A DNA stretch of 64,000 nucleotides from Dictyostelium discoideum (lineage: Eukaryota). The position numbers and the translations under genes are program-made. Below the pieces are notes generated by a model, which worked only from the letters and a program-made list of their open reading frames with translations, was not told where the DNA came from and ran no database searches. The DNA lies in contig CM000152.2 in assembly GCA_000004695.1 (NCBI GenBank), positions 1,152,001 to 1,216,000 of the forward strand, written 5' to 3'. How positions within the stretch are numbered: the first letter of the stretch is position 1; every line of letters starts with the position of its first letter. Positions 27,602 to 64,000 of this stretch are shown here, one piece after another.

Positions 27602-29013
27602 TTACTTGTTATTTCTATCTTTGCTCATAAAAATGTAACCATCCATACCCCATGAAGTACCCCATGAGTTTTTAACGATCCAGTAGTTACCAGATGAGGC
27701 CTCAACAGCACCTGAGCCTGAACCTGAACCTGAACCTGAACCTGAGCCAGAACCAGAACCTGATGCTGATGCTTGACCAGAAGCAGAGGTTTGACCTGAT
27801 TGTGAACCGGTGGATTGGCCTGATTGGCTACCTGATTGGGAACCTGATTGAGAACCAGAGGTTGATGAAGCAGCAGATGAAGTTTTACCTGATGATGATG
27901 ATGATGAAGCTTTGCCTGATGATGATGATGAAGCTTTACCTGATGATGATGAGGATGAAGTTTTACCACCAGTTGATGATGATGATGATGATTTACCAGA
28001 TGATGAACCAGATGATGAACTTGAACCTGAACCATAACCAACAACTAAAACACCATGATCAAGTTGGGTTGGAGAACATGCTGGTTCATAGTAGATACCT
28101 GATTCATATAATTGGAAGGATTCATTTGAAGCATCAATTGCAACAGAGACTGGAGCATTGTTTGATGCTGATTGTAATGAAGCTTCAGAACCAGAGGTAA
28201 CATTTTGGTATGAAACAATTTGAGCACCAATGTTTGATGTTTTGAATTTACATTCTTTACCATCTTCGGCAGTGTATGGATAACTACTTTCAGTATCAAT
28301 ACCTTTGTTATTGATGATATATTCAAAGGCAAGAGTCATTAAACCACCTTCACAACCATTGTTACCGTATGATTTTGAACAATCGATCAAGTTTTGTTCA
28401 GATAATGAAACTAAATCTTTTTTTGTTCCAGATGCAATAAAGTGAGCACCTTCAGTTGAACCAGTGGTTGAGAATGACCAGCAGCCACCACATTGACCTT
28501 GATTTTTAATTGGTGTGACAGCACCTTGAGCTCTCCAATCAACAGTTGGGGCTGGGGTGGAGAAGATTTTCTCTTCTTCAGTACCAATGAGGGCTGAACC
28601 ATCGAATGGGGTACCCAAGTAGGTAGTTCTATATTCTTGGTTGGTAATATCAGCGAAAACATTTAAACCCAAAACGGTTTCACCACCTTTTGAATTCCAT
28701 TGGTGTACATAATCCATATTGGATTTGAAGATTTGATAACGAGCATTAAATTCTTCAGAGGAATAAGTTCTAAAAAAAAAAAAAAAAAAAAAAAATTAAA
28801 AATTAAATCCTTAATTATTTGATTAATTTTACTATTTAATTATTTTTGATTATTTAATTTATTTGTTTTTTTTTTTTTTTTTTTTTTTTTTATATACCTT
28901 TGGTGAGCTTGCATCCAGTTGGTGAAAGCATTTCTGTATTGTAATTCAGAGAATTGTTGTTTAGCAGAAGCGTAGCTAACTAATAATAAACAAAGGAATG
29001 ATAAAACTCTCAT
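27602..29013 (-). CDS. Papain-family (C1A, cathepsin L-like) cysteine proteinase with an I29 propeptide and a roughly 110-aa Ser/Gly-rich insert, cprD-G-like; exons 29013..28898 and 28769..27602 (about 427 aa)
   Basis: A signal peptide (MRVLSFLCLLLVSYASA) and propeptide (EEFNARYQIFKSNMDYV) precede the catalytic Cys motif QGQCGGCWSFS, His motif LDHGVLVVGYG and Asn motif YWIVKNSWGTSWG. A (SSSSSGK)n/(SGSQ)n/(SG)n insert lies between the His and Asn motifs. The GTATAT donor at 28897 and TTAG acceptor at 28770 join in phase 2. Confidence 0.8.
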
Positions 29014-40385: not shown

Positions 40386-41519
40386 TTATAATAGATTTCT
40401 TTGTTTTAACCATTGAATATTTTCATTAATCATATATTCTAAAGTTTGAGATTTAAAATTTAATTGGTTATTTGCTTTGGTTGAATCGATTACAAAATTA
40501 ACACTTTGAATACAAGAGAGGAAGAAAGATTGATAAGGTGTTGGACGTGGTTTTGATTTCGATGCTTTTGTAGTTTTAAAATCATCATCCGCTAAAGAAT
40601 CGGTTGCTTCTGATGAAATTGGTTTAATAGTGGTTGAAGTGGTTGTGGTTGAAGTTCTGCCAAACCATTTGGCCATTAAATCATTCATTTTACCTGTTAG
40701 AATATATTTCAATGGGGAAACGGCAACAACAGGTTTTTCAATCGAGAGTTGAAATAAAACTTGTTCATAAAGTTCCTTCCAACTGATCAATGTACCACCT
40801 ATACAATAGTCACTTCCATTTGGTGCAACCTGTGCTGCTGTTATATGAGCCTTGGCAACCTCGTCCGCTGATGAAAAGTTGGTTTTACCTACGCCCACTG
40901 ACACAGTTTGAGAAGCTTGATGAGCGACCATTAATATAAACGAGCCAACACTATTTTCATCATATTTTCCAATGATAAAGCCCGGTGAGATGATCACCGC
41001 CTCCAATCCCCTACGTATGGCATCCTCCACATATAGCTCGCCAATTCTCTTTGTACGCGAATAACCAGACCTTGGTAGATTCTCTTTTGGGCATTGTTCA
41101 TTGATGATTCTATCTTTTACATCGTAGCATGCTATTGTGCTTGTGTAAATCAATCTTTTTACACCCTTTTTGAAACATGCCTCTACAACATTGGCAGTGC
41201 CATTTACATTGGTTTCGTATTGTTGAATTTGTTGTTCCTTCATTGATTGTTGTGATTCACTTGCATCTAAATCAATGAGAGCTGCAGCATGAAAACAGTA
41301 AAGACATTCATCTGGTATACCTTTTAACAATGATTTATAATTTGTAACATCACCTTTAACCAATATCAATTGATCTTGTTTATTCAATCTCTTTGCTATT
41401 GAATTTAATTCTAATACTTTATTCTTATTTCTATATAATGCATAAACTTGATATCCTTGAATTAATAATTGTTCAACTATATTACATCCTAAAAATCCAG
41501 TTGACCCTGTTACAAAACA

Positions 41520-41591
<72 letters not shown>

Positions 41592-41618
41592 GTTATTTAT
41601 ATTTATATTTTCACTCAT
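40386..41618 (-). CDS. NAD(P)-dependent epimerase/dehydratase (extended SDR, 3beta-HSD/cinnamoyl-CoA-reductase-like) with a poly-Asn N-terminus, single exon, 410 aa
   Basis: Rossmann motif CFVTGSTGFLGCNIVEQLL, the catalytic YxxxK in SGYSRTKRIGE, and overall extended-SDR architecture. Confidence 0.65.
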
Positions 41619-41763
41619 TCTTTTTATTTTTTTTTATTACTTTTTATTTTTTATTTTAAAATAAATTAAAAAAAAAATAAAAAAAAATTTAATTTAAAAA
41701 TTAAAAAAAAAATTAAATAAAAAATAAAAAGATTTTTTTTTATGGGAACACACAAAAGGCGGG

Positions 41764-48000: not shown

Positions 48001-51000
48001 GTAATTTCTTTAGTTGTGATATCTCTTCTCCAGTTGATACTTCAAATAGGCCTTCATGTAGTTCTCTTTTCTCTTCTGCAACTTTACAAACTTTGGGTAG
48101 TTCTCCAAGATGTGAATATACTGCTTCAAACATTCTAATGGTTACATTGGGTAGTGGTGAAAGTGTATCAGTTGGCCAACAATTGGAATTTTCTCAAGGT
48201 GGAATCACTTCAAAAGATGGTAGTAAGAATAATTATCAAACTATAACATTGGAACCACCACAAGATTCAACTCCAGTGGTAGATATTAAAGCTCCAAATG
48301 TTTTAGATTCATGTAGTCCATTGGTATTAGATGCTAGTCATTCAAAAGGTGGTAATGGAAAAGCATTAACCTATGATTGGTCGGTTAGTGGGGCAGATAC
48401 AAACACTCAATTAAATAATCTATTGGATCAAAATAATGCAACCATAACAATTCCAAATGATCTTTTGTCATCTGGTCAAACTTATACTTTTACACTTAAA
48501 ATCACAAATTGGTTAAAGAAATCTGATAGCGCAAGTGTTTCAGTAACAAAGAAAGAGGGTGAAGTTTTAGATGTAACAATTCAAGGTCCAAGTATTCATC
48601 GTATGGGTGCAATTGATCTAACTCTTAAAGGTAATGCTTCAGTTTCAAGTTGTTCAGTTGATGGCGCTTCACAAAACACCAACACAATCAAATATAAATG
48701 GTCAATTGTTCCAGAGATTCAATTGGCAAGTTCAAAAGATTATACAGGTCCAACTTTAAATATTCCTTCAAGTAAATGGGTTTATGATACAACTTATGTT
48801 ATTACATTAACTGCAACCTCTGGTAAAGAGACAAACTACGATAATGTTACAGTTATCATTTCAAAGAAACCAATCACTGCAGTAATTGATGGAGCCGATA
48901 AAGAATTCCCATTAAATACTTTAATAACTTTAGATGCTTCAAAATCTTTTGATCCAACAACTACTTCAACAGTTTCCAAAGAACTTGATGATTCAACCTC
49001 TACACAACAACAATCATTTACTTATGCATGGAGATGTATCAATAAAAGTGGCAAAGATTGCGGATTAAATTTAGAATCTGAACCAATTATTACATTTAAC
49101 TCTTCAAGATTGAATGTTGGTGTTTTCCATTTCTCTGTTGATGTTACCCCAAATGGTGATGCCACAAGAAGTGGTTCTGCTAGTGCCACTGTTACCATTG
49201 TAAATACTCCAGTAATTGATGTTATTATCTCACCATTACCAACAACCATTGATCCAACTCAAAAATTGGTACTCTATACAGTAGTTAGTGGTAATGATGC
49301 ATCTTCATCAAATTTAACCTATGAATGGAATATGCTCGAAGGTACTCTTGAACTTCCATTAAAACAAGCCTATAGTACCCCAATGAATAGTAGAAATTTG
49401 GTATTAAAGGCTGGTGCACTCGGTTCAAAAGTTGTCTATAGATTTTCAGTAGATGTTAAAAATAAGAAAACTGGTGCCACTGGTAAAGCAATGGTAACAT
49501 TCACCACTGAAGCAATCCCCCAAGGTGGTGATATCACTTGTTTAACAACAAGTGGTGATGTTACCGATACCTATTCAATTACAATGGGCGATCAATGGAC
49601 TGATAATTCTGGTATTAAATCCTACAATTTCCGTTATCGTGTAGGTAGTGGCCCAGCAATCGCACTAAGTGAATCCTCCTCTGATAATTCTATCTCTACA
49701 ATTCTTCCACCAGGTCAAATTACAATAATTGGTTATGTAACTTCAAATGATGGTATCACTGCAAGTAAATCATGTAAAATTCAAGTAAAAGAAGCAAGCA
49801 ACATTGAGGAAGCAATCAACTTTTTAAGTACAACTATAACCAATCCAGATGTTTCACTTTATCAACTTAGTGTAGCATTGAAAATTGCCAATTCATTGGT
49901 TCCTGAAACTTTGAGATTAGCCAAGGCATCATCAAAGAATGTTGTTTCAGAAACTGATGAACAATTCCAAGTTATAATGCCAGAAACTCCACAATCTGCA
50001 AATAAAGTTGTATTTTCAAAGAAACCAACCAATCCATACCTTGAACAACAAGAAGAAACAAAACAATTTGATCAACCAACAGTAAATAAGAAGATGTCAG
50101 CAGCTGCAGTTGCCACTCAAATATCTCAATTTAAAGCCAATGGTATTCGTCAAGTAATGGACCAGGTTGTTAAACAAAAAAAACAACTCTCAAACTATGG
50201 TATTTCAACAGTTGTCGATTTGATATCAACCTCTACAGATACTTCAGCAGTTGTTCATCCATCAACTCTTAAAGAATCAATGAATATTATGAAAGTAGTT
50301 AGTCCAATGATGGTTAAATCACAAGTTTTACCAAGTGATTTCATTTTATCTGTTAACTATTTAAGTAATGTCAATCAACAAGTCATTGGTCAACAATCAA
50401 ATATCACTCAAGGTAAAACTGCACCAACCTATGCTGATATGGTTTATAATGTTTCTTCAGACATTTTAGTGGTATCCAATTCATTGGCAGATGGTATTCT
50501 TCAAAGAACTGCAATTGGTGAAGAACCATTTACAGTTGCAAGTGATAAAGGTTTCTCGATTACAACATTTAAAACTCTACATATGGAATTAAGTAAGAGT
50601 GGTCAATCGATTGGTTTCAAAAAGGATGATGAAGGTCAATCTCTTGATGGTGAAAAACTTGCTTTCACTCCAAAATTCAGTATTCCATCAAGTGTTTTAT
50701 CAAAGAATAAATTAAAACAAACCTCTGAAATCACTGGTAAACTAATTACAGTTCCATCAAATATTCATTTCAATCATAAATCTGATCAAACCATTTTCCC
50801 AAAAACTGTTTCACTTGAACTTTTCAATGGTGGCTCTCAATTATCAATCAATGGCCTTAAAGATCAAATTATCATTGATATGGGAAAACATTCACCACCA
50901 AAAGATAAAGAATTTAAATGTGGTTGGTGGAGCTCCAATAAAAAAGAATGGTTAACAGATGGTTGTTCAACCCATAAAGTAGATGGTAATATTCAATGTA

Positions 51001-51965
51001 AATGTAACCATCTTACAGAGTTTGGTTTAATTGAATTTGCAAAATCCTCTCAAAACATTTGGATCATTATTGGACCAGTAGTTGGTGGTGTTGTATTTGC
51101 AGCTGCAATGGTTGGTACTGTTGTATTGGTAAAGAGAAAGAAAAACAAAAACAAAAAGAACAAATCAAAGAAAACCAAAGAACAAATCAACAAAGAAAAA
51201 GAAGACAAAAAGAAACAAGCAAAAGAAAAGAAAGAAGCTGATAAATTGGAAAAAGAAAATAAAAAGAAAGAAAAAAAAGACTCCAAAAAACAACAAAATG
51301 ATAATGCTGAAGCCTCAGGATCTGGTGATCTTCCAATACCAAAGAATAAAAAAGATAAATCCTTTGGTGATGAAAATGATGTTCAATATATTCTTCAAGA
51401 GTTTAAAGATATCTTTGCTGAAGCTAAAAAGAGAGAACAACTTAAACTCTTGAAAAATCATCAACCAATTTCACCTGTAACTTCAATTGGTAATGTATCA
51501 AGTACAACTTCAACTCCAATAACTTCTACAATTCAACCAGTTATTGATGAATCTTCAAGTAGTAATAATAATAATGATAACAGTAATACAACAACTACTA
51601 CAACAACTACAACTACTACAACAATAAATGATAGAGATAAAGCAGCCAAGACAATTCAAAAGGCATGGAAAAATTATTGTAGTATCAAACAACTTAAAAA
51701 AGAAGCTGAAGTTGAAGAATTACTTGAAAATATTGGTGAATTGTTATCTGATAATGAAAGAGATCCATTTGAAAATTATCAAACATTAGATACTCAAATC
51801 GATGATGATGAAGATAATGATCAACCACAAGACGATAACAATAATGAATCAAACGAACAAATTGAATCAAATGAAGATATTGAAAATAAAGATGAAGATG
51901 TTGAAAATAAAGATGAAGATGTTGAAAATAAAGATGAAGATGAAGAAGATCAAATCGAAAATTAA
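45002..51965 (+). CDS. Large type-I membrane protein with a signal peptide, GT4-like (GT-B) glycosyltransferase domain, GT2 (GT-A, DxD) glycosyltransferase domain, IPT/TIG domain, at least 4 PKD/REJ-like repeats, a GPS motif, one TM helix, a Lys-rich tail with an IQ motif and an acidic ENKDEDV x3 repeat; exons 45002..45062, 45142..45226, 45330..45433, 45514..51965 (about 2233 aa)
   Basis: Three short introns (GTAAGT 45063, GTAAAT 45227, GTTAGT 45434; acceptors AAAAG 45141, AATAG 45329, TTTAG 45513) link a signal peptide MLNFIVLFILFLLCSPSLQI to the 2108-aa ORF in phase. The GT4 domain shows IGIIVSSFEGMYSTSGIGTVYS...FFGRLEQRKGIVLF...VVIPSLEDNAPYTLYECLYNRIPFIAS. The GT2 domain shows VTICLTHFNRPNFL...EVILVDDGST...LMFLDDDNYMYPN. 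The IPT domain shows ITLSSIHPNYGPTSGGSLVSISGSGFN. REJ-type repeats show LDASHS...YDWSV, YKWSI and YAWRC. The GPS motif is CGWWSSNKKEWLTDGCSTHKVDGNIQCKCNHLTEFGLIEF, the TM helix is IWIIIGPVVGGVVFAAAMVGTVVLV, and the IQ motif is KAAKTIQKAWKNY. Confidence 0.8.
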
Positions 51966-52267
51966 ATATATAAAAAATTTTAAATAAAAATAAAAATAAA
52001 GAAATAATAAAAAAAATATTATTTTTTTAATTTTAAAATAATTTCTTTTTATTTTTATTTTTTTTTTTGATTATTTGTTCGAAAATATAAATTGTTTAAA
52101 TAAAATATCTTTTATTTAATTTTTTTATAAGGAATAATAAAAAAAAAGAACAATAGAAAAAAAAAAAAAAAAAAAAAGTAAAAAAGATTATTAATAATAA
52201 AAAAAGATATAATATAAATGGAGTTACCGGATTTTATTTTGCCAAAGTTGAAATTCTATATTATTAA

Positions 52268-52401
<134 letters not shown>

Positions 52402-52492
52402 GTTATTGTTTTTATTTTTATTACTATTAGTAGTATTATTATTATTTATTATTATTATTTATTATTATTATTTATTATTATAAAAATATGAT

Positions 52493-54040
<1,548 letters not shown>

Positions 54041-54108
54041 TATTTATTTAAATTGTTAATGTGTTGAAAATTAAAAAAACTGAAATAAAAAAAAAAAACC
54101 AAAAAAAA

Positions 54109-54139
<31 letters not shown>

Positions 54140-54395
54140 ATAAAAAAAAAAAAAAAAAAAAAATTTATTTATTTTTATTCTTGGTCAGTTCCAAACTTTC
54201 CAGTTACATAAATCCAAACAAAAAAATAAAAAATAAAAAAAAAAATATAAAAAAATAAAAAAAATAAAAAAAAAAAAAATAAAAAAAATAAAAAAATAAT
54301 AAAAAAAAAAAAACAAATAATTAAAAAGTTAAATTAATTTTTAAACATTAAAAGAAATGGTTTATTTTTTCTTTTGCCTTTATTTTTCATTTTTT

Positions 54396-55886
<1,491 letters not shown>

Positions 55887-55983
55887 TATTTGTTGGGGAA
55901 AAAATAAAAAAAAAAACTGAAAAAATAACAATAATAAAAACTAAAAAATTAAATAAAAGAGCAAACGTTTTTTTGAAATTTCT

Positions 55984-56251: not shown

Positions 56252-57409
56252 ATGTCAATATCATCAAGTGAAATTTTAGATAGTTCAAAAAATTATAATC
56301 CAGACGAAGAAGAAGAAATTGAAGAAAAAAAAGATAATATTATAATGAATCCAGTTATTTCAAAATTAGGTGGTTATGAATTTTTTAGAAATGTATTAAA
56401 ATCACCAAAAAAGACAGTAGCACCAATGGTTGATCATACATTTTTAGCATTTCGTATGTTATGTAGAAAGTATGGTGCAGATATGGTTTATACACCAATG
56501 TTTCATAGTAAGAATTTTGCAACATGTAAAACCTATCGTAGAGATTACTGGTCAACCTGTCCAGAAGACAGACCCTTGGTAGTGCAATTTTGCGGCAACG
56601 AGCCAGAGTGGGTGGTAAAGGCCGCAAAATACATCGAGGATCATTGCGATGCCATAGACTTGAATTTGGGTTGTCCACAGCAAATTGCACGTCGTGGTAA
56701 CTATGGCAGCTTCCTCTTGGACAAGCCTCATATCATTTTACCAATAGTCCAAGAGTTGCACAAACACATCAAGGTGCCAATATTTTGCAAGATCAGGTTA
56801 CTACCAAACCTTGACGATACCATAAAGTTGGCATTGCAATTACAAGAAGCCGGTTGCCAATTATTGACAATCCATGGCAGAACAAAGGAGCAGAAAGGCC
56901 ATAACTCTGGTATCGCAAATTGGAAAGCAATTCGTACAATTAGGGAACAGCTTTCAATACCTGTCATTGCCAATGGCAGTGTTGTACAATACGAGGATAT
57001 CGATAGATGTTTGGAGGAGACCGGTGCCGACGGCGTTATGTCGGCAGAGGGTATCTTGGCCAACCCATCATTCTTTTCTGGTTTAAAAGTACCAATTTAC
57101 CAAGTCGCTCGTGAATACATTGACTTTACAGAAATCTATAAAACTTCAATTCATGTCACTCGTAGTCATATCTTTAAAATGTTAAAAGAGAAACTCGATG
57201 TCTACAGTGATCTCAGAGAAACAATGGGAGCAACACATACCAATGATGGTTTCAGAGATATCATAACCGATTTAGAAACTCGTGAAAAAAATAATTTACC
57301 ACCTGTCAAAATTTTAACAAATAAACAAAAAAGAGAATTAAAACAAAAAGAAAATAATGATATCGATTCTTTAAAAAAACAAAAACTAGATGATAATAAT
57401 AATAATGAA

Positions 57410-57470
<61 letters not shown>

Positions 57471-57559
57471 TAAATGAAAATAATAATAATAATAATAATA
57501 ATACGGAAATTAAAAATGAAGATGAAAAAGAAAAAGTTTTAATAAATAATTCAAATTAA
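56252..57559 (+). CDS. tRNA-dihydrouridine synthase, Dus1/DUS1L family (FMN TIM-barrel), with a C-terminal Asn-rich tail; single exon, 435 aa
   Basis: The protein is collinear with human DUS1L (VAPMVDHTFLAFRMLCRKYGADMVYTPM, DLNLGCPQQIARRGNYGSFL, FCKIRLLP, LLTIHGRTKEQKG, IPVIANGSV, GADGVMSAEGILANPSFF). Confidence 0.8.
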
Positions 57560-57710: not shown

Positions 57711-58757
57711 ATGAAAGATTATTTACAAATTGTTGCAGAAGAAATTCATTATCCCTCATTTCCAGGACCATATCATGAACTTACAAAAGATGCACAAAGT
57801 AAATATCTTAAAAAATAAAAATGAAATTTAAATTGATTAAAAATCTAATAATTATTTATTTTAAAAATATTAGTTAGAATTGATTTTATTGAAGAAGTTC
57901 AAACTGGTATTAGTTTAAGTTTAGATAAAAAAAAAGGTGGTAATAATTTTTCAGCAGATTGTGGTTTAATGCCAATGTTTTATAGATTAGAAGTTGGTAG
58001 AGATATAAATGATAATCAAAAATTAGGTGCAATTATTCAACCAGAGAAACTTGAACTTAATTATAACTTTTCACCAAGTAAATTATTATTTGGTGGAATT
58101 TTAGGTGGAAAATCATCAAGAATTGGTGGTGACATTTATGTTGGTGTACCAATGACACCTCAAATTAATTTTGAAAAATTGGTTAAAAAAATATCAACAG
58201 TTGGTACAATTACACATGAAACTAATAAAACATCAACTGAATTCAAAGTATCAAGGATCTATATGGGAGATATTGATCATCGTTTGGCAGGATTGACATT
58301 TTGTTATGGATTAAAACCATCACTATCATTAGGATTTGAATTGTATTGTAAATTCATTCAAGGTAGTGGTGCATCGATTGGAGGTGCCTCACTTGGCGCT
58401 AGACATCGTGGTAGAGCAATGGGTATTCAATATGATTTAGCAGGTACTTGTAATATTTTTGGTGATCTTCAATTAACAAGTTCAATTGGTATCATACCAA
58501 ATAGATTATCTTTTTCAACTAGGTTCAATTTAAATACAAGTAATATCATTAGTAATATACAATTTGGTACTCGTATAAATGGTAATCCTATAATTGGTAA
58601 TCATGAAATTCCAATTTGTCTTAAACTTCGTACTGATACTAATTTTGAAAATGCAATTGCTTTAGATATTGATACTCCTTTCACTAGTATTAGTATTGGT
58701 TGTTTTGGTAAAAAATTAGATTTATTTAAAAATTATGGTATTAATTTTTCATTTTAA
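57711..58757 (+). CDS. tom40: Mitochondrial outer-membrane import channel Tom40 (porin-3 superfamily beta-barrel); exons 57711..57798 and 57874..58757 (about 323 aa)
   Basis: The N-terminal FPGPYHELTKDAQ resembles the Tom40 PGTFEECHRKCKE region, followed by alternating amphipathic beta-strands and a C-terminal beta-signal-like FGKKLDLFKNYGINFSF. The GTAAAT donor at 57799 and ATTAG acceptor at 57873 join in phase 1. Confidence 0.7.
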
Positions 58758-59911
58758 TCAATAAAAAAATAATAAAAATAATAAAAAAAAAAAAAAAAAA
58801 AAATAATAATAATAATAATAATAATAGTTTATATTTATATTTAAAATAATAACACCTTTTTTTATTATTTATTTTTTTTTATTTTTATTTTTTTTTTAAA
58901 AAACACTTTTTTCTAAACTTTTCAAAAATGTATTAAAGTAATTTAAAAAAAATTTTTTAATTGTCATAAATATAACTCATATTATCTTTAAAAAATTTAG
59001 TAAACAGATTTGAGTGAATATTCTTTGACACTTTTGATGTGGTTTATTTAAATCTCATTTTAATATGATAAAAAAAATAAAAAAAATAAAAATTATAAAA
59101 TTTATTAATAAATATTTATTATTATTTATTATAATTTGCATTTACCCCTTTTATCAATAAATTTGTAATTATAGTAAAAAAAAAAAATAAATAAAAAAAA
59201 AAAAACAATCTGATTTAAATCAAATTATTATAATAATAAAAAAATATAAAAATCAGTTTCATAAAAAATATGTAAACTAAAATCTATTAATTTTTTAATA
59301 ACCAATCATTAAATATTAGAATTAAATTAATTATATTAATAATAATAATAACAACTATTTATATAAATTTAGAGATTTGAAACAATGATTGGTTTTTTTT
59401 TTTTTTTTCAAAAATAAAATATATTTTAATAATAATATTTTATTACATTGAAATTAAAAAAAAAAAAAAAAAAAAACAATGAAAATTAAATATTATTATA
59501 ATATTATTATTTATTTAATAATAAATAAACCTCATATTCAATAATTCTTAATACTATATATCCTAATCTATCTTTGGTATGGACTTCAAAAAATCTTTTT
59601 TTAAAATGACCATAGGAAGATTCTACAATAAAATTATTTATTTATTTTTAAAAATGCATGATATTTCTCGTTTAGTTTGCAAAAGCAAATAAAAAAAAAA
59701 TAACAATTTATTTGAAAGTGAATTTTAGGTGTGGGTGTTTCATACATTTTTGTATGCATATGTTGACAAAATAGAAATAATTTTTATTTTAATTTTAGTT
59801 TTTTAAATTATTTTATTTTTTTATTTTTTATTTTAATTTTAATAATATTTCGAAAATAGCATCATCTTCTGAAACTGTTTCAAATAATTATTTATTATTG
59901 TATTTTTATTT

Positions 59912-59944
<33 letters not shown>

Positions 59945-61733
59945 TTTATTTTATTTTATTTTTTATTTTATTTTTTTTTTTTTTATTTTATTTTTATTTT
60001 TTATTTTTATTTTTATTTTTTTTGACATGGTTTGTCATGTTTGCGCATTTTTGATAATAAAAAAAAAAAAAAATCTTAAGTTTTTCAAATAAAAATAAAG
60101 ATTTTTTTTTTTTATTTTTTTTTTATTTTTTTTTATTTTTTTTTTTATTTTTTTTTTTTATTTTTTTTTTTGGCAGTATAAATTTTTTTATTTATTTTTT
60201 ATTTCCAATTAAAAAAAAAACAAAAAAAAAAAAAAAAACTTTATAGCCTTTAAAGTATGTACATGATTTGATTATCTTTTTTTATTTATTTTTTTTTTTC
60301 ATTTTTTATTTTTTTTAGATTATTTTTATTGTTAAAACTTCTTAAAAATAAGCAACCAACAAGGTGTTTGCACACACATGCCCCATTATTTTTTGTGAAA
60401 ATGAAACAACAACGGTTTCTTTTCCTAATTTGGTTGTTTTTTTTTTTTAAATTTTTTTTTTTATTTTTTTTTTTTTAAAATTTTTTTTTTTAAAATTTTT
60501 TTTTTTTAATGTTTTTATTTTTTTATTTTTGTTAAAAATTTTTGTCTTAGCCAGCACCCCAACAATATTCATTTTCATTCCAAAGGTTTATTAATAAAAT
60601 AAAAAAAATAAATAAATAAAAATAATAATAAAAATTTATAATTAAAGTAACTAAAAAATAAAAAAATAAATAATAAAACATAAAAAAATAAATAATAATA
60701 ATAAAATTTCAAAAATCAAAAGAAAATCAAAAAAAAAAAACAAAATAATTATATTTTTTCAAGTAAGAGAATAAATTATTGTTAATATCAATATTTCACC
60801 AAAGCTTTCTTTAATTAGCAGCTTTGATTTTTTTTTTTTTCTTTTTTTTTTTTTTATTTTTTATTTTTTTTTTTTTTTATTATCAATTGCAGATACACAA
60901 TAAAAACATAACCACCACCACTACTACCACTACCACTACCAAAATCAAATACATTTACATCATATATTATCAAATTCAGATTGTTGGAAAAACTCACAAA
61001 AAAAAAATCAAAATTATCATTTTCTTCTTGGGGGTTTGTTAAATTTATTTTTTATTTTTATTTTTTTTTTTTTTTACTTTTATTTGCTTACTTGTGTGGT
61101 ATTGTGTTGAATTCAACACATCAAAAGCGTTTATCATAATGCCACACTAAATTTAGTGGCAATAAAAATAAATATCCATGATTGCAACAGTAATAAAAAA
61201 AGGAAAAATAAAAAAAAATAAACCACTTTTTTTTTTTATTTTTTATTTTTTTTTATTATTTTTTTTTTTTTTTGCCCATTATTAGATATAAAAAAAATTA
61301 ATAAAATTAATAAAATTAAAAAAAAAAAAAAAAAAAAAAATGGGGGTGGATAGTTTAATTTGATATATCAAATTTGACAATCGCCCCCACTTCATTAAAA
61401 AAAAAAAAAATAATAATAATTTTTTCTACCCCCTCCTCACACGCACTTTATTGTTTTTTTTTTCAATAATTATATTTTTAATTTAATTTAATTTAATTTT
61501 TATTTTTATTTTTTTTATTTTCATTTTTTTTATTATTATTTTTTTCTTTATTAATTGAGTTTTTTTTTTTTTTTATTTTTTTAATTTCATTTGATTTCAT
61601 ACTTTTTATTATTATAAATTTTTTTTTTAGATTCTCTCTAACATTTTTTTTTAATTAAATTTTCAAAAACAAATAAATAAAATATTAATACAAAAAGTAG
61701 TAAAAAACTTTCAAACAACATCAAAAATAAAAA

Positions 61734-62120
61734 ATGAACTCTTTCTTTGGTAAGTTATAATATTAAATTTTTTTTTTTTTTTATAATTATACTAATTAAT
61801 ATATATATATATATATATATTTTTTTTTTTTTTCTTCTTCTCTCATTTAAAATAGACCTTTTCAAATCACCATCAAAAAATACCAAAACTGGTTTATCAA
61901 GTTCAATGGACTCAATAACTGAACCAAAATCAAATATGTCTTCACCATCTTTAAATTCATCCACATCAAGTTTATCTTCACCATCTTTAAATTCATCTCC
62001 ATCATTAAGCTCATCAACTGATGGTGCTTTCATAATGAGAACAACATCTTCTCCATCAATTGATATTCCAAATAGAGAATCCTCTTACTTTAGAATGCTC
62101 CAAGTTGTTGAAGCTGGTTC

Positions 62121-62127
<7 letters not shown>
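61734..62127 (+). CDS. Small Ser/Pro-rich protein of unknown function; exons 61734..61749 and 61856..62127 (about 95 aa)
   Basis: A 5-codon first exon (MNSFF) ends in a canonical GTAAGT donor at 61750, and an AAATAG acceptor at 61855 joins in phase 1 to ORF 61747..62127. Repeated SPSLNSS units are present. Confidence 0.4.
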
Positions 62128-62172
<45 letters not shown>

Positions 62173-62578
62173 AACTTTGTACATATCGAAGAAAATAATA
62201 ATAATAATAATAACTTTACCAATTCAATTTTTTGTTGTAAATATTTCATAAAACAAAAACAAAAAGACAAAAAAAAAAAAATAATAATAATCATAATAAT
62301 TAAGCAAGAGGTATAAGTAAATTCTTGTATTTCTTGAAAAATGTGCATTTTTTTTATTGTAAATAATTAATATCAAACAATACATCCAATGATAAGGGAT
62401 TTATAATTTCTATCGCTTGTAAATAATTTTTTAAAAATAAAAAATAAAAAAAAAAATAAAAAAATAAAAAAATAAAAAAATAAAAAAAAAATAAACAATA
62501 CTCCCATCAAACGTACTTTAAAACTTCTTTTTCTTTTTTTTTTTTTTTTTTTATTTTTTTATTTTATCGTTTTAATTT

Positions 62579-62626
<48 letters not shown>

Positions 62627-62677
62627 TCGGGGTGATTTAATTTCATTTTTTTATTTTTTTCATTATGTTTTTCAAAA

Positions 62678-64000
<1,323 letters not shown>

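Follow-up and report, generated by a model that had tools for sequence, protein, structure and literature searches.

A lineage-specific GC-rich island inside the dus1 gene of Dictyostelium discoideum: a candidate hotspot of GC-biased gene conversion

Biased substitution tracts and the dus1 locus

Hotspots of GC-biased gene conversion (gBGC), also described as "biased clustered substitutions", are regions of accelerated, AT→GC-biased substitution in the genomes of mammals and birds. They were reviewed by Duret and Galtier in 2009, as cited in PMC4683709. The subject of the present analysis is a comparable tract in Dictyostelium discoideum, a GC-rich island within an intronless gene for a tRNA-dihydrouridine(16/17) synthase (Dus1-like; hereafter dus1). 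The gene lies in a 64,000-nucleotide stretch of contig CM000152.2 (assembly GCA_000004695.1, positions 1,152,001 to 1,216,000 of the forward strand), which is referred to here as the window and to which all coordinates apply. As in mammals and birds, the tract is no longer than a kilobase, has an excess of AT→GC change, is specific to one lineage, is indifferent to codon optimality, extends to replacement sites and leaves AT↔TA change unaltered. It departs from those hotspots in lying wholly within an exon, in that conversion is read from substitutions alone, in a drop of GC→AT change that is not significant, and in its host, a haploid protist without Spo11, whose 22%-GC genome has given no genome-wide gBGC signal (PMC8321536).

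The same species has been used as a model "without gBGC" to separate selection from neutral forces in codon usage (PMC8321536), and it recombines at high frequency in the absence of Spo11, by an initiation mechanism that is unknown (PMC6369745). AT→GC-biased clustered substitution is in itself an established phenomenon; exonic islands of less than a kilobase were not described for Dictyostelium in the literature searched.

Three other kinds of sequence resemble the island in part. In Dictyostelium, exons that border lost introns can be GC-rich, and gene-conversion hotspots have been put forward as the reason (Ma et al. 2015, PMC4683709). The dus1 island shares with these exons the genus, a locally raised exonic GC content and an ancestral intron position (codon 112) inside the enriched segment. 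Unlike them, it spans ~580 bp rather than ~100 bp around a junction and the loss of its intron is much older, while cDNA-mediated conversion gives no source for ~55 AT→GC differences. Expression-linked codon bias, at least as summarised in a later study (Sharp & Devine 1989, via PMC8321536), likewise raises the GC content of third codon positions (GC3) in the coding sequences of an AT-rich genome. That bias, however, extends over the whole gene, favours C-ending codons and keeps GGT, GAA, CAA and CCA, whereas the dus1 island takes up part of its gene, belongs to one lineage and abounds in G-ending codons. Islands acquired horizontally or by introgression also combine a sharp compositional step with atypical codons, but the protein encoded by the dus1 island is native and its composition changed stepwise.

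Extent, lineage and tempo of the island

The dus1 gene occupies 56252..57559 on the + strand and encodes 435 amino acids in an intact open reading frame (ORF). The island covers codons 99-291 (56546..57124, + strand, ~580 bp), its limits being the first and last derived AT→GC codon, and within it stepwise AT→GC change has affected silent and some replacement sites. The tract contains no non-coding DNA. The window as a whole has a GC content of 22.7%, and in 150-nt segments GC reaches 0.40-0.50 at ~56475-57150, with 0.05-0.32 on either side. GC3, calculated over 30 codons at a time, is 0.33-0.60 at codons ~91-285 and 0.03-0.17 in the N- and C-terminal parts. Overall, the island has a GC content of 0.446 and a GC3 of 0.472, compared with a GC3 of 0.116 for the remainder of the ORF, and the frequency of G at third positions is 0.19 in the island and 0.04-0.07 elsewhere. 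The background, taken as 199 non-overlapping 60-codon segments of 32 other ORFs, has a mean GC3 of 0.134 (sd 0.081) and a maximum of 0.43, the latter in the gene for aconitase, with its C3-type bias. The ~580-bp cluster of derived sites is within the size of a conversion tract (about 2 kb or less), its edges are sharp, and both the flanks of dus1 and the adjacent genes are unaffected.

An earlier description of this DNA, referred to here as the sequence-only reading, had placed a sharp intragenic compositional step at 56500-57110. The step is real, with a GC3 of 0.47 in the island and 0.12 in the flanks, but it starts at ~56546 rather than at 56500. The codons that had been named as typical of the segment (GTG, GGC, GCC, GAG, AGG and TTG) are all present by count: GGC encodes 6 of 13 Gly, GAG 9 of 12 Glu and TTG 10 of 19 Leu residues, and there are six GCC, three GTG and two AGG codons.

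For comparison with relatives, orthologous dus loci were retrieved, three intron-containing coding sequences were rebuilt and codon alignments were made. The GC3 profile of the gene is flat, at ~0.1-0.3, in D. firmibasis, D. purpureum and T. lacteum, with ~0.1-0.2 over the island in the first two. A weak core of ~0.3, limited to codons 150-240, is present in D. citrinum and in the second of two "D. cf. discoideum" genomes (L012). In the first of these (L008) the island reaches 0.33-0.60, and the window sequence has the highest values of all. The island is graded and specific to the D. discoideum lineage. It is a local event rather than a lineage-wide constraint: the condition named in the sequence-only reading as refuting, an equal profile in other dictyostelids, fails in the orthologues of D. 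firmibasis, D. purpureum and T. lacteum. Among three genomes of the D. discoideum complex, 18-29% of synonymous codons differ in the island, compared with 4-5% in the flanks of dus1 and 2-6% in four genes nearby. Relative to D. firmibasis and D. citrinum, 41-50% of same-amino-acid codons differ in the island and 11-19% in the flanks.

The direction of change was examined at third positions of codons whose amino acid is constant in five genomes. Changes were counted by presence pattern and polarised by parsimony, with 174 codons in the island and 990 control codons in adjacent genes (a glycosyltransferase/REJ protein, LUC7, a 511-aa protein, an MDM10-like protein and Suv3; spans 49700-55940 and 57852-63535, compared with L001, L002, L008 and L012). 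AT→GC changes are in excess in the island on the stem of the D. discoideum complex (13 vs 6 in the control, p = 1.5e-7), on the stem common to the window and L008 (17 vs 3, p = 3.5e-12) and on the tip leading to the window (11 vs 5, p = 1.4e-6); the L008 tip has 4 vs 6. Pooled over the polarised trunk branches, 41/174 island codons and 14/990 control codons have changed in this way (odds ratio 21, p = 1e-24). AT→GC changes outnumber GC→AT changes by 41:3 in the island, while in the neighbours they are the fewer, at 14:21 (p = 3e-7); the implied equilibrium GC3 is ~0.81 and ~0.14, respectively. Changes to which gBGC is indifferent (AT↔TA, GC↔CG) are not raised: AT↔TA changes on polarised branches number 2/174 in the island and 12/990 in the neighbours, and with the unpolarised class included the counts are 7/174 and 46/990. 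The overall supply of mutations is thus not increased. Most changes in the island are transitions, with T→C about as frequent as A→G. This strand symmetry led to the rejection of RNA editing with subsequent retro-conversion. Replacement changes on the trunk are AT→GC as well (N172H, AAC>CAC; L245V, TTA>GTA; I262V, ATT>GTT).

The derived sites of four nested branch classes are interleaved across codons 99-291 and form no contiguous block, so that the island grew by single sites along a succession of branches. A single event with later decay towards AT was rejected, because GC→AT reversion on the tip branches of the neighbouring genes affects only ~1% of S (G or C) sites, which is far too low for the 11 differences found only in the window and the 4-6 found only in "D. 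cf. discoideum".

These observations bear on the view that the core of the gene was replaced from a GC-richer source, whether by horizontal transfer, by introgression from another dictyostelid or by ectopic conversion from a paralogue or retro-copy. Such a donor would account for a sharp ~0.6-kb tract with many AT→GC differences, and the largest batch of these, the 17 sites on a very short internal branch, could represent an allele from an unsampled member of the complex. The protein, in contrast, looks native. The Dus1 ORF matches the Pfam family Dus (PF01207) with E = 1.2e-73 and 248 bits (cut-off 20.4), residues 56-346 corresponding to positions 2-297 of the 311-position profile (TIM-barrel domain), and the DLNLGCP, FCKIR and HGRT motifs are intact, including the catalytic-Cys motif NLGCP. 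The product is a Dus1-type protein with a predicted activity on U16/U17 of tRNA. The exact 435-aa protein, together with an identical gene, is also found in a second chromosome assembly of D. discoideum. Protein searches with the conserved part as query gave "D. cf. discoideum" at 99% identity, D. firmibasis at 94%, D. citrinum at 93% and D. purpureum at 78%, then Polysphondylium (74%), Tieghemostelium (72%) and Acytostelium, Heterostelium and Cavenderia (57-64%), with Physarum and Acanthamoeba (~52-54%) and animals and fungi (~50%) as the most distant matches. This ranking is that of the dictyostelid species tree, and dus1 is an unexceptional gene, passed on by vertical descent and kept under strong purifying selection.

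The island segment of the protein is not discordant with the rest of the gene, as it gives the same ranking of species, and its amino-acid identity to D. firmibasis and D. citrinum is 95-96%, compared with 76-90% in the less constrained flanks. A native-looking protein with a foreign composition makes a donor not credible. All known close relatives are AT-rich in the island region, and a donor from within the complex would in turn require an AT→GC drive of this kind. The interleaving of sites from four successive branches, the AT→GC excess that arose independently on the window and "D. cf. discoideum" tips and the low reversion rate also count against a single transfer. Horizontal transfer and introgression were rejected on the match ranking, the amino-acid identity and the interleaved, nested derived sites, and an ectopic donor within the window was rejected since blastn found no similar sequence anywhere in its 64 kb. 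A donor is thus already largely refuted and would now be a very improbable source of the island. Gene conversion had been named in the sequence-only reading as one route from a GC-richer source, together with introgression or horizontal transfer of the TIM-barrel core; it is favoured here in an allelic, GC-biased form, and a donor is not supported by any of these routes.

A second GC3 island was identified from Pfam matches, codon tables and the GC3 profile at 40809..41213 (- strand), in a gene of the NAD-epimerase / 3-beta-HSD family (ORF 40389..41633). Among the genuine reading frames of the window, this segment is the only other one with a comparable load of non-optimal G/C-ending codons, and it too is marked by non-optimal G-ending codons. 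The GC3 of this segment, 0.3-0.5 in the window, stands at 0.23-0.43 in D. citrinum and at 0.10-0.17 in D. purpureum; D. citrinum has the island too, and D. purpureum lacks it. When the window is compared with D. citrinum, synonymous differences come to 0.32-0.62 within the island and 0.07-0.3 outside it. In the window lineage, AT→GC changes are found at 8/125 codons inside and 2/229 in the flanks (p = 0.005), with no GC→AT change. The occurrence of the same signature in two unrelated genes 15 kb apart argues for a regional process at the level of DNA and not for a function specific to dus. A motif common to both islands was sought and rejected, as none was found beyond chance, and the two share no repeat or hairpin. 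The epimerase-family protein is very narrowly distributed, with only seven database proteins at E <= 1e-30; matches are to the D. discoideum complex, D. citrinum (95%) and D. purpureum (55%), followed by two at 41% and 35%, and no D. firmibasis match was returned.

Conversion, mutation and selection as possible sources of the drive

The locality of the dus1 island, its lineage-specificity, the direction of change, its stepwise accumulation and the lack of any tie to codon optimality are observed. The process behind them is, with a probability of about 0.5, a narrow and persistent gBGC hotspot. Such a hotspot would be ~0.6 kb wide, about one conversion-tract length. The localised A/T→G/C drive over codons 99-291 has itself run in place and by single sites, on the line of descent to D. 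discoideum. It began weakly before the D. citrinum split, then accelerated within the D. discoideum complex, and was still at work on the tip that leads to the window strain. Under conversion, mismatches in heteroduplex within the tract would, in heterozygous zygotes, be repaired preferentially to G/C, and AT→GC alleles would become fixed much more often than under neutrality. Because purifying selection would remove most replacement changes from the catalytic core, the drive would be visible almost only at third positions. The footprint matches that of a gBGC hotspot because of its tract size, an acceleration specific to AT→GC, the flat AT↔TA class, indifference to codon optimality, the involvement of replacement sites, persistence and recurrence at a second site. 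A correlation of GC content with length at the level of D. discoideum chromosomes has also been reported to be consistent with gBGC (PMC5635611), and the proposal of conversion-prone, GC-rich exon sites in Dictyostelium (PMC4683709) likewise speaks for it.

Several points weigh against a conversion hotspot. A search across the whole D. discoideum genome gave no evidence of gBGC (PMC8321536), and the few crossovers that have been mapped fall in AT-rich non-coding DNA (PMC6369745). The fold-increase in AT→GC change implies a very strong drive, with a population-scaled B of the order of 10-30. AT→GC change is not in excess on two side tips, those of L012 (1 vs 18) and D. citrinum (4 vs 31), and the hotspot would have to act along one lineage only. 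A conversion bias should in addition suppress the fixation of GC→AT changes; these occupy 3/45 S sites in the island and 21/200 in the neighbours, a reduction that does not reach significance (odds ratio 0.61, p = 0.58). The tree of the D. discoideum complex is founded on few sites (7 vs 5 vs 1) and the polarisation is by parsimony. Finally, that the bias would act at fixation through conversion, rather than as a bias of mutation, is what we infer from sequence comparison.

The main rival is a local mutator. In this case, error-prone repair or replication, with A:T→G:C errors on both strands of the kind made by a Pol-eta-like polymerase, would generate AT→GC changes at the site with no bias at fixation. 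Pure mutation bias predicts a rate of GC→AT change per S site that is not significantly reduced, as found. A mutator is also compatible with the predominance of transitions, with T→C about equal to A→G, with side lineages that lack the effect, as if a local DNA feature had been switched on, and with genome-wide tests that find no gBGC (PMC8321536). Against it, the flat AT↔TA class requires a mutator that is strictly AT→GC-specific, and no repeat, hairpin or motif is common to the second island. Persistence over several speciations at a 0.6-kb site, and at a second site, would need a stable cause that is invisible in the sequence. To our knowledge, spontaneous mutation is biased towards GC→AT almost universally, which also counts against this explanation. 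Local mutagenesis appears rather unlikely. A site-specific AT→GC mutator process would be an alternative just as new as the extended conversion reading given below.

Selection for a GC-rich feature specific to D. discoideum, such as mRNA structure or stability, expression, an antisense transcript, or chromatin and nucleosome organisation, is an unlikelier explanation than a mutator. In its favour, the island folds slightly better than dinucleotide shuffles (z = -1.96 in sense and -1.80 in antisense orientation) and than synonymous-codon shuffles (z = -1.81, 2/60), compared with -0.08 for the D. firmibasis orthologue. The similar z on both strands suggests composition rather than a stranded RNA. 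A search of the island against Rfam returned no family at E <= 1, and in an RNAalifold consensus of five genomes the covariation term is a penalty (+2.4), with many pairs broken. A structured RNA was rejected on these grounds. The sequence-only reading had also proposed an embedded structured or antisense RNA, for which the Rfam search and the covariation penalty leave no support, and selection on mRNA structure, for which a z of ~ -1.8 is a weak hint.

Raised GC has also left long stop-free stretches over the island. Two are antisense (- strand), one of 115 codons at 56388..56732, which contains a listed ORF at 56385..56690, and one of 122 codons at 56731..57096, which contains a listed ORF at 56728..57063. 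They are marginally long for the composition, with P = 0.069 and P = 0.045, respectively, against synonymous shuffles, which counts slightly in favour of an antisense feature. The same shuffle test showed that the number of antisense stops in the island is not below expectation. A further ORF of 70 aa, at 56874..57086, had been taken for antisense but is really on the + strand, in another frame. None of the three extra ORFs has a Pfam match. All are by-products of the raised GC, in keeping with their earlier dismissal as artefacts, and an antisense gene was rejected. Selection on a GC-rich feature would in addition need implausibly strong effects per site to drive ~55 independent silent substitutions at 13-35x the neutral rate. 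It would also have to accommodate the AT→GC shift at replacement sites and the same pattern in the unrelated epimerase gene.

Ordinary codon-usage bias, in the form of optimal codons in a conserved catalytic core or of a constraint shared by all dictyostelids, is already refuted and its probability is close to nil. Conserved cores are often more biased, and two other genes of the window, for aconitase (16708-18786, - strand) and a cysteine protease, do have raised GC3. These genes, however, show the classical expression-type, C-ending bias, with GGT, GAA, CAA and CCA retained. In aconitase, GC3 is 0.30 and almost all of it is C-ending, with GGT at 67/68, CCA at 35/35, CAA at 21/21 and 24 CTC codons. 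The codons gained in the island (GGC, GAG, CAG, GTG, TGC, GAC and AGG) are rare in aconitase and the cysteine protease or missing from them; GGC accounts for 6/13 Gly codons in the island vs 0/68 in aconitase, and GAG for 9/12 Glu codons vs 2/35. ATA, which is also non-optimal, is present in the island as well. Preferred codons of D. discoideum are reported not to be GC-rich (PMC8321536), and the profile is missing from D. firmibasis, D. purpureum and T. lacteum despite nearly the same proteins. Translational selection was accordingly rejected on the codon tables, and the bias of the island is that of an indiscriminate AT→GC drive at the level of DNA, filtered by purifying selection on the protein.

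A 0.6-kb tract heading to ~80% GC3, where silent sites otherwise stand at ~10-15%, means that a strong local AT→GC drive exists, and two such tracts occur within 64 kb. If conversion is the cause, islands of this type would be natural markers of recombination sites, and in dictyostelids they would confound analyses of codon usage and of dN/dS. A mutational drive would be an unusual process, specific to AT→GC. In either case, caution is needed before intragenic GC islands are taken for horizontal transfer. More tentatively, both islands, and presumably many others, may mark sites, less than a kilobase long, where heteroduplex has formed over long periods during Spo11-independent meiosis in D. 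discoideum, with strong gBGC confined to narrow exonic hotspots and averaged away genome-wide. This extension is doubtful, but if it were true, comparison across the species complex would give the first map of where recombination starts or is resolved in a Spo11-less eukaryote.

Lost introns and other coding-sequence features

The ancestral intron position of the gene, at codon 112/113 (56585..56590, + strand; from tblastn exon maps), falls inside the island, near its 5' edge. An intron at the equivalent of window residue 112 is common to P. violaceum and H. album, and dus is intronless in all Dictyostelium species examined and in T. lacteum. Loss of the codon-112 intron preceded the divergence of D. 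purpureum and is thus much older than the island, which for this reason was rejected as a by-product of that loss. The introns of C. fasciculata dus are at codons ~57 and ~313.

At the C-terminal end of the gene, a poly-Asn tract (57390-57510) has a GC3 of ~0 and is variable in length between close relatives; Dus1 measures 435, 419, 440, 421 and 445 aa in these, the window included. Local GC3 heterogeneity in the same gene may recur across dictyostelids. In D. purpureum, GC3 is 0.30-0.43 at codons ~271-330, where relatives have 0.17-0.33, and in P. violaceum it is 0.30-0.47 in the C-terminal two-thirds (codons ~151-330), compared with 0.07-0.23 in the N-terminal third.

The control genes have a pattern of their own. 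Every terminal branch has more AT→GC than GC→AT silent changes (60:13 over four tips), and the 78:19 class that separates D. firmibasis agrees, provided that its changes belong to the D. firmibasis tip. On the stem of the D. discoideum complex the balance is reversed, at 6:18. This contrast between tips and stem may reflect a parsimony artefact, polymorphism or non-equilibrium composition. Elsewhere in the window, shadow ORFs with GC3 up to 0.92 are present on both strands at 27628-28197, over a Ser/Gly-rich repeat. They are not genes but alternative frames of the repeat within the papain-family cysteine protease gene (27605..28795, - strand).

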